Origin: Blastocatellia bacterium
GTDB lineage: Bacteria > Acidobacteriota > Blastocatellia > UBA7656
DNA: 64,000 bases
Assembly: GCA_035258805.1 (NCBI GenBank)
Contig: DATFWY010000099.1
Location: 5,357-69,356 of the forward strand
Direction: 5' to 3'
Of this stretch, positions 20,010-27,212 are shown in pieces (positions within the stretch are counted from its first letter, which is position 1; every line of letters begins with the position of its first letter). A program made the translations under genes and the position numbers. The notes under the pieces are model-generated. The model did not search any database. It had not been told where the DNA came from and saw only the letters and a program-made list of their open reading frames with translations.

Positions 20010-20969
20010 TCAGACGACAAAACTATATCCAGGGTCGATCGCCTGATGGGCAATCAAAATGTCGTGTACCGCATACGGATGGGTTTCGATTCCAGTGATC
20101 TTGTGCTCAATCACCTGGAATAGATGTTCCAGTCCCGAGACCGGATCTATGTCGATATCGACGACGCACTCATCCCCCTTCAGGAAGTAGGTGAGCTGAA
20201 GGTTGCCGAATTTGTCTGGCGTCTTAAAACTACCGGCATGTTCAAATCCAACGAATTGTGGGGGCAAATGGTGAAGTCCTTCCGGCGCAGATTTGAACAG
20301 CCCGGCTACTGCCGCGTTCTTGGTTTCTTCCCTCAACTCCCTGGGTACGAAAGCAAAGAAACGATCGCCGCGGATCTCAATGATGCTCTGGATGAATGGC
20401 AAGACCGTCTTTCCGCCTACAAGCGGAGTCGCCGCACATTTTGCGGTAAGGTTCAAAACATTTGACTTGCGAACGTCATCCAGGGCGTCATAAAGACCCG
20501 CTCCCTCTTTTCCCGCAAAAGAAAAAACGTTACTGCTGTTATTGAGGAGATTACTCGTGGCAGGCAGCAATTCCGCGAATGGCGGAAAGGTCACGTCGAT
20601 GACCTTCCCGGGGTCAATCGCGAAACTGATCTCTAAGTCAGTGATTCCACTTGCTTCGAGATTTACAAAACGACTGGTCGGCAGATACGCGGAGGGATCT
20701 ATCTCAATACGGTAAAGACCCTGAGGCGCGCCAAACAGTTCCTTAATCAGTATTCTTTTTGATGCATCCAGGCCATTAAACCTGGGTGCGTGGTTGAGAA
20801 CCTGGTGACGCAGGCTGATGTCTGTCTTTCCTCCAATTCGCTCGTCCTTAACGTTAACCAGGTCCAATCGCAGCTGCCCTTGTTTTTCGTCTGTGCTCAT
20901 CCTGGAGTTCTCCTTCTGAGTGCGGCGAGAGATGTCTGGAACTTTGTCGAGCCGCTGATATGTTCCCAA
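20010..20969 (-). CDS. Hypothetical protein
   Basis: 319-aa ORF with no recognised domain. An internal start at MSTDEKQ (about 20900) is possible. First gene of a co-directional four-gene cluster. Confidence 0.45.
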   Translation of the reverse strand: MGTYQRLDKVPDISRRTQKENSRMSTDEKQGQLRLDLVNVKDERIGGKTDISLRHQVLNHAPRFNGLDASKRILIKELFGAPQGLYRIEIDPSAYLPTSRFVNLEASGITDLEISFAIDPGKVIDVTFPPFAELLPATSNLLNNSSNVFSFAGKEGAGLYDALDDVRKSNVLNLTAKCAATPLVGGKTVLPFIQSIIEIRGDRFFAFVPRELREETKNAAVAGLFKSAPEGLHHLPPQFVGFEHAGSFKTPDKFGNLQLTYFLKGDECVVDIDIDPVSGLEHLFQVIEHKITGIETHPYAVHDILIAHQAIDPGYSFVV

Positions 20970-22511: not shown

Positions 22512-22738
22512 ACGCTTCGAGGCGCCGTCGGAAGGCTTGCGGCTTAGCGTAAACCGCGCTTTTGCGCGAAGTTGTCTATCGAAAACTAGTGGGCTGTATA
22601 AGAGACTTCGCTAGTGATTGCTCAACGCCTCCACCGACACAGGGAGACTGTGCGAAAAGTCCAAATCCACCCACGGCAGGGTCGGTGGAGGCGTTAAAGC
22701 AGACACACTAGCGAAATCTCTGATACAGTCCACTGTTT

Positions 22739-23620
22739 TCAGATTTCGACACTTCGTTCGAGATGCGCAACATAGTTTACCGGTGCGTGATCGGCGATCG
22801 GTTCCGGTGCGTCGGTAAATAGCTTGTGCCAGTCAGGGAAAAATGCAAGGCGATCTCTCTTCAACCGATCTCGCGCCACTGTGTCGTCATCCGGATTGGT
22901 CAACACATCGCCATCGTGAGTTATATAGTGCAATTCGCCAATATGATGAAACGGTACCGGTGGAGGGACAACCGTGACCACGTCGCGATTGTTCACTACT
23001 CGATAGATGCTGATGCCGTTAAGCGACTGGGCAAATTCGCTATCCCCGACGCGCGGAGACCCAAAATCGTAAAGCACACGAGGCTTGAACAACGACGCTG
23101 CCAAGGTAGCCAAAGCAGCTCCAAGGCTGTGACCGGCGATGAAAAGAGGACAGCCCGACGGGACATTCTGTTTGAGCGATGCTGTAATTCTGCTCTGGAC
23201 CAGCTCAATCGCTTCGGCGAATCCCTCATGCACGAATCCTCCCGCGGGCCACGAGACTGGAAATGCTCTAAAGTCGGTCAGCCAGTCCATCAAATCGGTT
23301 GTTCCGCGAAAGATCAGCGCCGCGAAGCTGGACGAATTCATAGGTTTTATTAGCGCAGCTTCGGTATCACCTTCATTGAAAAACTCCACCTCCTGGAGAT
23401 TCACGGATTCAAGTATCTCCTGGCGCGACGGCCCGGTCGCGTCACCGGATTCATCGATGTCCTCTCGGTAGATCAGCCGGCACAGTTCAGCCAGCCACCA
23501 GGCATTGATCTTGCTGTACGAAGTAGCATCAGCCTCAAATTTCAAATCGCTCAGTTTGTCAAAATACAACGTTGCCTTGCCTGGTTTCAGCACCGCGTCC
23601 CAACTGTTGTCGAAATTCAT
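22739..23620 (-). CDS. Class 3 (fungal-type) lipase family alpha/beta hydrolase
   Basis: The nucleophile elbow GHSLGAALATLAA and the lipase_3 domain layout. 293 aa. Confidence 0.75.
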   Translation of the reverse strand: MNFDNSWDAVLKPGKATLYFDKLSDLKFEADATSYSKINAWWLAELCRLIYREDIDESGDATGPSRQEILESVNLQEVEFFNEGDTEAALIKPMNSSSFAALIFRGTTDLMDWLTDFRAFPVSWPAGGFVHEGFAEAIELVQSRITASLKQNVPSGCPLFIAGHSLGAALATLAASLFKPRVLYDFGSPRVGDSEFAQSLNGISIYRVVNNRDVVTVVPPPVPFHHIGELHYITHDGDVLTNPDDDTVARDRLKRDRLAFFPDWHKLFTDAPEPIADHAPVNYVAHLERSVEI

Positions 23621-23695
23621 AAGCCCTCTTTGACTGAATCATTCTGCAATTTGGACAGTGATACTTGCGCAGATTGGCAGTGCATCCCAGCTCGT

Positions 23696-25471
23696 TTACT
23701 TCTTAGGCCACGGCTTGAAAGCATTGTCCAGTTGTTCCACGACTGGACCAAGAGCAGGAATATGCCGTCTCAAAACGGTTCTCATGTTGTTATCCTCGAT
23801 CCACTTTAAGCCGGTTTTAGTGTAAGTCTTTTCGTTGTAGTCAGTAGTAAAGAAGCGATCGCTTTGCAATCGACGAGAGGCCATGAGGATGAAAATGCGA
23901 AACGCGGTTTCGCTGAAGCCAAAACCCTCAGGCGGATCTTCGGCATACATCCCGACCATCAGGTCCACTTTGTTGATGTCGCCGTTGTACACACGTCTGA
24001 TCTGTTCCACCCATTCTTTATTGCTCGACAAGTCCTCGAACTTCTCTACCGGCTCCTTGTCGATAAGTTTGAGGAACTCGTTGTAGCGGGGGACACCACG
24101 TTCACGATCACGAAGTATATCCACGGTCGCCAAATCGATCGTCGGAGCATCCGTACGTTCCAGACGCTGCAAAAACCGCGGGTAATTGTGCAACTTGATC
24201 GCGCCCGGGTGCATTTGCCCGAACGAATAAAACAGATCCGCCATCGAGAACTTAGTCATAAGCTCGCGAGCGCGCTTTTCTGCAACGTCGGGCAGCGTGC
24301 GCTGGTCAACTACCTGGCCCGTGGAGAACGACCGAAAGCTAAAGTCGTCGGGCATCAGCGGGTGCATCCGGTACACTGCCACAAATTCTTCGGTGATCGA
24401 ATAAGGCGCAGCGTGGTGCTCGGCCTTCGAGCGACGGATGGTCAGCCAATTTGCATTCATCCCCGCTTCGACCGTTGGGTGCGCGACTATGGCAGGTGTC
24501 CACTCAATCGTATGAATCTTAGCCATCAGCGCGGCGTTTATCAGCCGGGCGCGATCGAAGAGTTCCTGGTCGGTCCAGGAAGCAAATTCAGAGCGGAGGC
24601 GTTCGGCGATTGCATTGTGCTCCAGGGTGAACAGCGTATGGAGCATCGCAAGTCCAACCCACCAGTTTCCGGTAACGCCAGAAATATCGACTCCACTGTG
24701 TGGATCAAGCGGAAGAAGGTTGTCGCTTCCAAGCTTGAGCTTTCCGTCGACGCCCAGGCGCACTCTTGTCTGAGTCTCGGGGTCGCTCCCGTAGATTTGC
24801 GAGCCATCCCACCAGTGAGTCTCGGTGTTGGTGTAGGTCGGCACCGGACTGGTTGAGCTGGGCGGTCGGGTCGGATCGTGGCGAGTACGGCGCACCTGCA
24901 TCGGTCGTTCAGGCCACGGATCGTCCCCGCTGAGAGGGATCTCCATTGGATCGTTTCTTTCGTTGTTCCCGTGGCTTATCCAGTCGTGTACTTCAAACTG
25001 GATCCATGCCGCCGCCAATAGATTGAGCGAAGTCGCCGGCTGAAACTCTTTGCGAGTCATTAATTCGAGGCTCACTGTTCGGGGGCTCGGAGTAAGCAGC
25101 GCGTCTTGATCCGGAATCACCCGATCCAGCGGGACGTTTCGACCAAAGCGGGCCCCGGCGCATCCCATCCTTGGCTGGTCCAAATCGTTATAGGTTCCGT
25201 CAACGGTGCGCGACGTCCGCTGCGGGACACCGGGTTTGCCCAATGGAGGCTGCTCAATGGATTCAATCTTCCCTGCGTCGTAAAGGTTGTCCTTTCTCAG
25301 CTTTTCGCGGATGCGGAAGACGCGCGCCAATCCTAGAAATACCGGGAGTTTATACCAGGGGATCCAGCCGGTGAATAACCCGGTAACTCGTCCAAAAGTA
25401 TTTGAAAATATGTTGGCCATCACGAGGTCCTCTGAAATGGCATTTTCGACCTGGACACGATAATCCCACAA
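23696..25471 (-). CDS. Animal-haem-peroxidase family protein, fatty-acid alpha-dioxygenase / linoleate diol synthase-like
   Basis: 591 aa. AAWIQFEVHDWISH closely resembles the distal-His block of plant alpha-dioxygenases (WIQFMIHDW). The rest matches An_peroxidase architecture. Confidence 0.75.
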   Translation of the reverse strand: MWDYRVQVENAISEDLVMANIFSNTFGRVTGLFTGWIPWYKLPVFLGLARVFRIREKLRKDNLYDAGKIESIEQPPLGKPGVPQRTSRTVDGTYNDLDQPRMGCAGARFGRNVPLDRVIPDQDALLTPSPRTVSLELMTRKEFQPATSLNLLAAAWIQFEVHDWISHGNNERNDPMEIPLSGDDPWPERPMQVRRTRHDPTRPPSSTSPVPTYTNTETHWWDGSQIYGSDPETQTRVRLGVDGKLKLGSDNLLPLDPHSGVDISGVTGNWWVGLAMLHTLFTLEHNAIAERLRSEFASWTDQELFDRARLINAALMAKIHTIEWTPAIVAHPTVEAGMNANWLTIRRSKAEHHAAPYSITEEFVAVYRMHPLMPDDFSFRSFSTGQVVDQRTLPDVAEKRARELMTKFSMADLFYSFGQMHPGAIKLHNYPRFLQRLERTDAPTIDLATVDILRDRERGVPRYNEFLKLIDKEPVEKFEDLSSNKEWVEQIRRVYNGDINKVDLMVGMYAEDPPEGFGFSETAFRIFILMASRRLQSDRFFTTDYNEKTYTKTGLKWIEDNNMRTVLRRHIPALGPVVEQLDNAFKPWPKK

Positions 25472-25940
25472 TGTCGAGGCTTTTGCTCTCTTACTATGAC
25501 GTAATCGAGTTCCGTAGTTATTCTTTTATAAGGAGGTCCAGGTTAAACTGCGTTGGAAGCGGGATCGACCCTGCTTGATTGGACCGCCTAACAAGGGCAT
25601 TTCCCGGTATCAACTCGCGGCCCGGTGATGCCAGCCGTAAGGTGCTATGCTGGTGTTAGCCGATGAGGATCTGGAATGTGTCTTGTTATCACAGTTGAAC
25701 TTTTCGAGGACGGAGCGTCGACAACCCGATGGTGCGAGACCACCTTGCTACCAACGATGCCATCCAACCCAGCGGCCGGAGAATCATATCCGCAAGACAA
25801 TTTTTTTCCAAACAAAAATCGATGAATGGAAGTTTGGGAGACAAGGTGGATTCACTAGCATCGGACCGTCAAAGCTCAAATTATCTGAGTCCCAGCCGTG
25901 CAGGCTTGCAAAACAGTGGTGAGGGGCGTAAAAAATAATT

Positions 25941-26390: not shown

Positions 26391-27212
26391 TCACCTACCA
26401 AAATAAAGCTTCAGCCAATCTGACCTCACCGCGGACCATCTGTACTTATCGCATTCCCGCTGCCCGCCAGCAGTTAGTTTTTGTGCGAGCAGTCCGTCTT
26501 CGAGCAACCTCGAAGCATTCTCCGCCAGCGCTCGGTAGTCCCTGCATCTAACAACGAGGCCACTTCTGCCGTGCTCCACGATGTAAGGAATCCCACCTGC
26601 ATCAGTGGTGACCACCGGCAAACCAGATGCAAACGCCTCAATTATAGAGCATGGCATATTGTCTATATCGGGACTGTTAAGATAAATGTCGGCAGAATCG
26701 TAGAGTGCATTCATCTGCGAGGGGGCGCCGCGATCGACACCCTTTAACGATTCTTTTGTTTCGGCGAATAAAACGAATGTCTCTGCGATAGAAGTTGATC
26801 GGAGTTGGTGTGTTCTCTCGAGCTGCGTCTTGCAGGGAAACTTCTCTTCGACTATCTGGCGGGCCGCGTTTGCCCATCTCTCGAGCTAGGGCGGGTTGAT
26901 TCAACAGGTAACTGATGCGCTGGGTCATTGCGTCATCGTCGTCCGATCGCACGAGATAACCCGTCTGACTATCCACGACGGCTTCACGCGCGCCGCCGAC
27001 GTCTGTTGCAACCACCGCCCGCGCTGCAGCCATGTATTCCAGAATCGAGTTGGAAAAACCTTCCGCCGTTGACGAAAACACGCATACACTGGAAACACCC
27101 AGGAGATCTCCAATTGACTTACATCGCCCACGAGAGGTAAGTAATCATCTTGATTTTGGTGGAAGTCGGGGCGGCCGTGGTCCGTGTCGAGAGGACCCGG
27201 ATAGCTCGACAT
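26391..27212 (-). pseudogene. Glycosyltransferase family 4 (GT4) C-terminal regions disrupted by frameshifts (at least two EX7E-containing segments)
   Basis: Three overlapping minus-strand ORFs (26391..26714, 26677..27081, 26925..27212) each carry GT4 C-domain sequence: LPLVGDVSQLE; FSSTAEGFSNSILEYMAAARAVVATDVGG; ARQIVEEKF; IAETFVLFAETKESLKGVDRG...SIIEAFASGLPVVTTDAGG. Apparent frame changes lie near 27180, 27085 and 26895. This is either genuine decay or homopolymer sequencing errors. Confidence 0.5.

Follow-up and report, generated by a model that had tools for sequence, protein, structure and literature searches.

Genomic context of a predicted bacterial alpha-dioxygenase in Blastocatellia: a candidate fatty-acid-oxidation module with a class-3 lipase and an Old Yellow Enzyme-family partner

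The window analyzed here is a 64,000-nucleotide stretch from the genome of a soil acidobacterium, Blastocatellia bacterium (GenBank assembly GCA_035258805.1, contig DATFWY010000099.1, positions 5,357 to 69,356 of the forward strand). It harbors the gene of an alpha-dioxygenase-like heme protein (DOX), which adjoins the genes of a class-3 lipase and of a putative flavin/iron-sulfur reductase of the Old Yellow Enzyme (OYE) family. The locus may represent the Blastocatellia version of a fatty-acid-oxidation module that recurs among bacteria, a reading on which the comparative evidence is about evenly poised. An earlier, sequence-only reading had described a 591-aa heme peroxidase carrying AAAWIQFEVHDWISH, followed 75 bp downstream by a co-directional GHSLG lipase_3 gene, and the open reading frames (ORFs), motifs and Pfam assignments agree with that description (Table 1). 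It had presented the two genes as a putative oxylipin module; the pair is indeed present, but the convergent OYE gene, a more widely conserved partner, had been overlooked. The best homologues of both DOX and the lipase were found in metagenome-assembled genomes (MAGs) of Blastocatellia and other Acidobacteriota, and the label "Acidobacteriota-like" given earlier to the genome therefore holds.

The DOX sequence was found to contain a full-length An_peroxidase domain (PF03098, E = 9.7e-110; residues 88-574 against profile positions 2-522 of 530). In a comparison with solved structures by pairwise scores, a set in which the fungal linoleate diol synthases have no member, the top matches were rice alpha-dioxygenase (alpha-DOX; E = 3e-114, 385 bits) and Arabidopsis alpha-DOX (E = 5e-111, 375 bits). 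The next PF03098 structure, annotated as lactoperoxidase, followed at E = 8e-21 (77 bits), and the prostaglandin H synthase (PGHS) structures at E ∼6e-13 (∼51 bits). The likeness to the plant enzymes (OsDOX, 4KVK/4KVJ; Arabidopsis alpha-DOX1, 4HHR/4HHS) extends over residues 38-588, with ∼41% identity to the rice protein (218/536 aligned positions). The distal His162, located inside AAAWIQFEVHDW, aligns to rice H157, while Tyr367 and His370, inside AVYRMH (of which VYRMH is the shared plant motif), align to the catalytic Y379 and the proximal H382 of rice; the mutant chain 4KVL (Y379F) shows F in the Tyr367 column. The residues of the fatty-acid carboxylate site, the roles of which are taken from PMC8720084, were also present, i.e., His320 and Thr325 (KIHTIEWT) and Arg533/Arg534 (ASRRLQSDRFF), aligning to rice H311, T316, and R559. 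His162, His320, Thr325, Tyr367, His370, and Arg533/534 were invariant in an alignment of 12 DOX sequences from across phyla, drawn from Acidobacteriota, Chloroflexota, and Armatimonadota-like members. At its N-terminus, DOX aligns to the corresponding amphipathic segment of the plant enzymes and bears no resemblance to a signal peptide. Owing to the margin of the structure matches and the full set of catalytic and carboxylate-binding residues, DOX is assigned to the alpha-DOX clade as an enzyme with a complete predicted catalytic set and not to the generic secreted peroxidases. The alpha-dioxygenase likeness proposed by the sequence-only reading is thus borne out, including the catalytic Tyr and proximal His for which it had suggested an alignment. 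The window DOX differs from the plant enzymes in being bacterial and clustered with lipase and OYE genes, and its activity is predicted by homology. The ORF as called opens at a TTG, which adds 17 residues missing from most of the close homologues (97% query cover); since most of these are 574-576 aa long, the ATG of Met18 is the likely true start, and the TTG probably lies 17 codons too far upstream.

DOX is a further member of a known bacterial alpha-DOX family, for which more than 8,000 homologues were retrieved at E ≤ 1e-20 and at least 600 genome hits were obtained. Three cyanobacterial members, CsDOX, CalDOX, and LepDOX, have been characterized and turn C10-C16 fatty acids into Cn-1 aldehydes, and the published alpha-DOX tree already holds acidobacterial sequences (PMC8720084, PMC9305512). 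These enzymes belong to the same prokaryotic branch as the window DOX, and the cyanobacterial loci sampled in this study encode DOX proteins 50-55% identical to it. Since bacterial alpha-DOXs, acidobacterial ones included, were already in the literature, the enzyme in itself is not unusual, whereas the earlier reading had called a compact bacterial version unusual. Genomic context is not discussed in PMC8720084 and PMC9305512, in which the terms "gene cluster" and "operon" have 0 occurrences each. A bacterial fatty-acid dioxygenase of the PF03098 superfamily with an adjacent partner gene has been described in Nostoc punctiforme, where linoleate 10S-DOX works with the product of an adjacent catalase-related lyase gene (Brash 2014, PMC4036322; reviewed in PMC13049297). 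This pair was considered as the family of the present locus and rejected, as the Nostoc enzyme falls in a different, COX-like clade (∼31% identity to cyclooxygenase, COX) and carries its catalytic Tyr within an FxxxY motif, and the window DOX scores ∼50 bits against PGHS versus 385 against alpha-DOX. No partner of the Nostoc catalase-related type was identified in the window.

The neighborhoods of DOX homologues were compared in 80 species-level genome loci. On the evidence of gene linkage, the OYE is the deeper, older, and more widely conserved DOX partner than the lipase, because an OYE orthologue was found beside or near DOX in 17/80 loci belonging to five phyla (Acidobacteriota, Chloroflexota, Cyanobacteriota, Verrucomicrobiota, and Actinomycetota). 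The DOX-linked OYEs share 53-77% identity across phyla and 85-93% within the close clade, and their position relative to DOX varies from immediately upstream to immediately downstream or one gene away. The window OYE matches PF00724 (E = 1.6e-62) without an NAD(P)H/FAD domain. Its matches in the PDB were YqjM-type OYEs and the N-terminal domain of Escherichia coli FadH (2,4-dienoyl-CoA reductase, 1PS9), all aligning over the FMN-binding TIM barrel (E ∼1e-37 to 1e-38); it differs from FadH in the absence of the FAD/NADPH domains (437 aa vs. 671 aa). The His/Asn/Tyr active-site motif LHGANGY is kept in all DOX-linked OYE orthologues. A four-cysteine motif, CTYCNKC-x11-C, is invariant in 15 OYE orthologues and lies in a region that the PDB alignment to FadH stops short of. 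The spacing of the cysteines is presumably like that of the [4Fe-4S] site of FadH and TMADH, and the motif is regarded here as a putative iron-sulfur ([4Fe-4S]-type) site. The OYE subfamily numbers more than 6,000 homologues (E ≤ 1e-60). Correlation of pairwise identities between DOX and OYE gave no usable signal of co-evolution (Spearman 0.01), because the identities of DOX level off at about 50-55% between phyla.

A gene for a RoxA-like diheme cytochrome c was found in 12/80 DOX loci, and the OYE was present in 12/12 of these (L011, L016, L017, L031, L038, L039, L043, L049, L052, L059, L061, and L074). The same cytochrome gene also occurs in L167 and L169-L171, and it is the commonest neighbor of the OYE subfamily even in the absence of DOX. 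Among five loci seeded with OYE sequences, four contained the RoxA-like gene next to that of the OYE, two also an An_peroxidase gene together with a P450 gene, two a giant GMC oxidoreductase gene, and one an esterase and a GDSL lipase gene; in L170 and L171, the P450 gene adjoins that of the An_peroxidase. The window was searched for RoxA-like, P450, GMC, fatty-acid desaturase, and DyP-like genes, all of which accompany DOX elsewhere, and none was present.

The second neighbor of DOX is a predicted cytoplasmic class-3 lipase (Lipase_3, PF01764, E = 8.2e-25), with no N-terminal signal-like segment visible in its sequence. Its closest PDB matches were Rhizomucor-type lipases (E = 1.5e-17). Ser165 of the GHSLG motif aligns to the Rhizomucor nucleophile and Asp213 (NNRDVV) to the NERDIV segment of the same enzyme, both residues being invariant among orthologues; His278 (ADHAP) is the putative triad histidine by its invariance among orthologues, as the PDB alignment ends at residue 237. 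Feruloyl esterases also belong to this family according to the PDB matches, and the substrate is given here as a predicted acyl ester only. The lipase gene follows DOX on the same strand, and a consensus-based scan of the spacer found no terminator-like site. A Shine-Dalgarno-like motif, AAGAGGG, is positioned 4 nt 5′ of the lipase ATG. A sigma-70-like promoter match lies upstream of DOX, and such matches constitute weak evidence since they are no more numerous in the region than in shuffled sequence. From this arrangement, DOX and the lipase are probably co-transcribed. Rfam scanning of the whole window gave no match.

Taken as a pathway, the locus would operate in three steps. The lipase would hydrolyze an acyl ester in the cytoplasm to release a free fatty acid. 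A membrane-associated alpha-DOX would then add O2 at C-2 by way of a Tyr367 radical, and the resulting 2-hydroperoxy fatty acid would decay to CO2 and an aldehyde one carbon shorter (or to the 2-hydroxy acid); this reaction is proposed because the characterized plant and cyanobacterial homologues perform it. In the third and weakest step, the FMN/[4Fe-4S]-type OYE may reduce a reactive downstream product, be it an enal, an enone, or a hydroperoxide. In other phyla, the role of the hydrolase would be filled by patatin-like phospholipases.

Within a shallow Blastocatellia clade (DOX ∼79-85% identity), DOX followed by the lipase on one strand was the rule, seen in 15 related loci, the two genes either lying next to each other (gaps of 71-175 bp) or having a single lysozyme-like/SH3 gene inserted between them. 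Several observations beyond and within this clade weigh against the proposed module. The orthologous lipase was located near DOX in 1/80 species-level loci, that of the closest relative, and was absent from 79/80. The lipase was also followed through its own neighborhoods, i.e., 79 metagenome loci around lipase homologues and contigs of close relatives. In the ∼50 loci with lipase orthologues of ≤60% identity (flanks of varying length, many of 6 kb), neither DOX nor OYE was ever found nearby, and the closest lipase relative (L088, 82%) besides the identical cluster P0121 has a regulator gene upstream and no DOX. In sister genomes, unrelated genes such as that of the lysozyme-like/SH3 protein or VanY have been inserted between DOX and lipase; one relative with an 83% identical DOX carries VanY where the lipase would be, and another, at 71%, an unrelated 168-aa gene. 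PALP, ROK, HD-domain, and fatty-acid desaturase genes are likewise retained throughout the clade, and because the entire region is syntenic, retention of the lipase does not rise above background synteny. The OYE is not found within 10 kb in ∼80% of DOX loci, no aldehyde dehydrogenase or acyl-CoA genes occur in the DOX flanks within the window, and, to our knowledge, no established chemistry ties an ene-reductase to alpha-DOX products.

The class-3 lipase is accordingly seen, on comparative grounds, as a lineage-specific addition to the DOX locus: adjacency of the orthologous lipase does not extend beyond close relatives in the 80 DOX loci, the ∼50 lipase loci, or L088. The sequence-only reading had named a different conservation pattern of the lipase as grounds for refutation, and such a difference from DOX was observed. 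The pairing could even reflect synteny only, with DOX a real alpha-dioxygenase and the lipase an unrelated cytoplasmic esterase of one Blastocatellia lineage, tied to it by no substrate or product. The confinement of the linkage to a shallow clade, the lipase without DOX in L088, the unrelated genes between the pair in sister genomes, and the equal conservation of the unrelated PALP, ROK, and HD neighbors would all suit such an explanation, to which a minority share of the probability is given. It sits less well with the common strand, short gap, and missing terminator match of the pair, or with the orientation of the lipase downstream of DOX, which persists despite insertions and loss of the OYE; the recurrence of non-orthologous acyl hydrolases beside DOX in other phyla is hard to explain if the neighbor is irrelevant. 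Separately, the slot 3′ of DOX holds the gene of a 320-aa protein that looks, by eye, lysozyme-like with an SH3-like tail in L001 (11789-12751), L089, L090, L098, and L086, and a VanY/Peptidase_M15 gene (Pfam) in L081 (9790-10398). A 4HBT-family thioesterase gene is placed immediately 5′ of DOX in L087 (7354-7782) and would be another possible source of free fatty acid.

Hydrolases that are not orthologous to the window lipase give comparative support to the idea of a hydrolase module. Patatin was among the commonest Pfam families in the 122 immediate neighbors of the 80 DOX genes, and Pfam-verified patatin-like phospholipases were present within ∼5 kb of DOX in at least 13/80 loci (a raw count) of Actinomycetota and Chloroflexota. 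One strand of the locus from Cyanobacteria bacterium RI_101 (L020) carries, in a row, the genes of a class-3 lipase of 417 aa, the OYE (after a gap of 4 bp), and DOX. This lipase was found with a hidden Markov model built from the lipase alignment, and it is considered a separate recruitment because it shares just 38% identity with the window lipase over an 87-residue core. Hence, DOX together with some lipid acyl hydrolase recurs across lineages on raw counts (13 patatin loci and L020), and it appears that acyl hydrolases were recruited independently beside DOX in several phyla. The earlier proposal that a lipase feeds the dioxygenase is partly supported: it gains ground in this wider form, with other hydrolases recurring beside DOX, while the orthologue of the window lipase accompanies DOX in a single locus of the 80.

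Further arrangements were noted in these neighborhoods. In two Actinomycetota MAGs, fusions of a cyclic-nucleotide-binding (cNMP-binding) domain with patatin are encoded divergently to DOX (L055, 8049-9983, minus strand; L073, 8008-9810, minus strand), which suggests signal-regulated release of fatty acid beside a dioxygenase. In three actinobacterial loci (L037, L042, and L046), DOX occurs together with P450, GMC oxidoreductase, fatty-acid desaturase, and patatin genes. The patatin protein is ∼1,100-1,250 aa long and carries DUF3376 in L037 and L042; that of L046 has 595 aa and lacks DUF3376. Giant GMC-like genes flank DOX in seven loci. Three conserved neighbor families (c21, c8, and c19; L039, 3812-4741; L050, 4774-5973; and relatives) have no Pfam match, namely, a 309-aa protein whose gene separates those of DOX and OYE in cyanobacteria (6 loci), and proteins of ∼400 aa (10 loci) and ∼420 aa (6 loci), both of which often occur with a DyP-like peroxidase.

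The same enzymes could serve in detoxification or stress, with DOX (or its peroxidase activity) and the OYE clearing free fatty acids, lipid hydroperoxides, and enals, and the lipase excising damaged acyl chains after membrane damage. OYEs commonly reduce electrophilic enals, and the subfamily retains the OYE-type His/Asn/Tyr motif LHGANGY; its members also occur without DOX, beside esterase/GDSL lipase, RoxA-like diheme, and GMC oxidoreductase genes. Plant alpha-DOX genes are, moreover, stress-induced (PMC9305512). Peroxiredoxin, thiol, or regulator genes of the kind that mark stress regulons were not found in the flanks, and the chemistry overlaps that of the fatty-acid-oxidation module to the extent that the two are inseparable from sequence alone. 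A dedicated detoxification role is deemed unlikely.

The module reading can be carried further, to the proposal that alpha-DOX genes mark a widespread and undescribed bacterial oxylipin pathway. Its core would consist of alpha-DOX and the FMN/[4Fe-4S] OYE, joined by the RoxA-like diheme cytochrome in 12/80 loci and by P450 and GMC oxidoreductases elsewhere, while interchangeable and sometimes signal-regulated hydrolases would supply the fatty acid (the class-3 lipase here, the cNMP-regulated patatin in Actinomycetota). This extension is tentative and, on present evidence, rather doubtful. In eukaryotes, oxylipin cascades lead from cPLA2 to COX, or, in plants, from a DAD1-type class-3 PLA1 to lipoxygenase (LOX), AOS, AOC, and finally OPR3, which is itself an OYE. 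The loci described here have corresponding components, namely, a class-3 lipase or patatin, a heme fatty-acid dioxygenase of the peroxidase-cyclooxygenase superfamily, and an OYE-family reductase. However, the window dioxygenase is alpha-specific by homology and is neither a LOX nor a COX, and its OYE carries an Fe-S-like cysteine motif and is no OPR orthologue. The likeness is confined to the logic. Should the wider pathway prove true, prokaryotes would have their own equivalent of the phospholipase-to-COX/LOX-to-OPR cascades, which might also have a role in signaling.

Table 1. Features of the alpha-dioxygenase locus and their positions in the window
Feature	Position	Strand	Remarks
hyp250 protein, 250 aa	17769..18521	-	8-bp overlap with the PhoD-like gene
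PhoD-like metallophosphatase-related protein, 487 aa	18514..19977	-	sub-threshold Pfam match
hyp319 conserved protein	20010..20969	-	likely start Met24 at 20900, giving 296 aa; transthyretin-like N-terminal sandwich
OYE-family FMN oxidoreductase (PF00724), 437 aa	21198..22511	+	convergent to lipase; LHGANGY, C-terminal CxxCxxCx11C
Nested inverted repeat, 167 nt	22578..22744	.	fills the OYE-lipase gap, overlaps the lipase stop codon
Predicted cytoplasmic class-3 lipase (PF01764), 293 aa	22739..23620	-	GHSLG (Ser165), Asp213, His278
DOX-lipase spacer	23621..23695	-	75 bp; AAGAGGG ribosome-binding-like motif, no terminator-like hairpin
Alpha-dioxygenase-like heme protein (DOX, PF03098)	23696..25471	-	591-aa ORF; likely start Met18 at 25420, giving 574 aa
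Sigma-70-like promoter match, TTGGAA-17-TATGAT	25783..25811	-	upstream of the DOX gene, consensus match

Downstream of the OYE, the genes of hyp319, the PhoD-like protein, and hyp250 are all located on the DOX strand, and hyp319 comes after the OYE in close relatives as well. A homologue of the PhoD-like protein is encoded directly 3′ of the lipase in L088. In a more distant acidobacterial MAG (L002, 5290-16204), a one-strand operon comprises genes for a GMC-like oxidoreductase of 1,527 aa, DOX, a purple-acid-phosphatase-like metallophosphoesterase, a PhoD-like homologue, hyp258, and hyp293, the last two being homologous to the window hyp250 and hyp319. The PhoD-like protein and hyp250 are tentatively included in the module. 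Hyp250 had no Pfam match; in PDB sequence searches, neither it nor the PhoD-like protein gave a significant hit, and hyp319 gave none either as a single sequence or as a profile. The AlphaFold2 model of hyp319 (pLDDT 94.8) showed a transthyretin-like sandwich followed by a C-terminal domain; in a Foldseek search against the PDB, the N-terminal sandwich alone was matched and the C-terminal domain had no fold match. Asn150, Lys154, His210, Lys226, Asp250, Asp252, and His259 are invariant in the hyp319 family, which suggests an active or binding site.

The hyp319 family (595 representatives, E ≤ 0.001) also forms the C-terminal domain of ∼1,000-aa nSTAND1 NTPases and of TIR-domain proteins (P0364, P0371, P0420, P0392, P0370, and P0384), an architecture typical of conflict systems. 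The locus might on this ground be a conflict or signaling system, in which hydrolase and DOX make an oxylipin signal and hyp319 is the sensor or effector. The cNMP-binding-patatin fusions divergent to DOX in L055 and L073 and the varying cell-wall hydrolase genes in the slot beside DOX would be compatible with such a system. In the window, however, hyp319 is a stand-alone protein, and fusions elsewhere are indirect evidence; the seven locus proteins gave no match to the PADLOC defence models, and no phage or mobile-element context was seen. This explanation is considered highly improbable.

The gap between the OYE and the lipase is filled by a nested inverted repeat, with arms of 39 nt at 82% complementarity and of 15 nt with perfect complementarity. 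Its predicted RNA fold has a free energy of -94.5 kcal/mol (z = -11.5), only one copy of the repeat occurs in the window, and an Rfam scan around it gave no match. The corresponding gap is much shorter in relatives (142 bp in L084 and 52 bp in L087). The repeat may be a bidirectional terminator or an inserted element. Upstream of DOX, at 26391-27081 on the minus strand, two adjacent short ORFs of 107 and 134 aa resemble, by eye, the C-terminal portions of group-1 glycosyltransferases and may be gene remnants or the product of a frameshift.

No relevant report came up when the literature was searched for bacterial alpha-DOX in combination with OYE, gene cluster, or operon. Within the literature searched, the cluster of DOX with a lipase and a putative Fe-S-type OYE is an undescribed variant. 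Prokaryotic alpha-dioxygenases have so far been studied as biocatalysts only (PMC8720084, PMC9305512), and the locus offers a testable pathway from a hydrolase through alpha-DOX to a flavin/Fe-S reductase. In practical terms, such loci may provide natural enzyme sets for making odd-chain aldehydes straight from lipids. If the pathway is true, an OYE subfamily that is both very large and highly conserved would receive its first assigned function, and bacteria would have assembled the "release then oxygenate" scheme of eukaryotic oxylipin synthesis repeatedly from non-homologous hydrolases.

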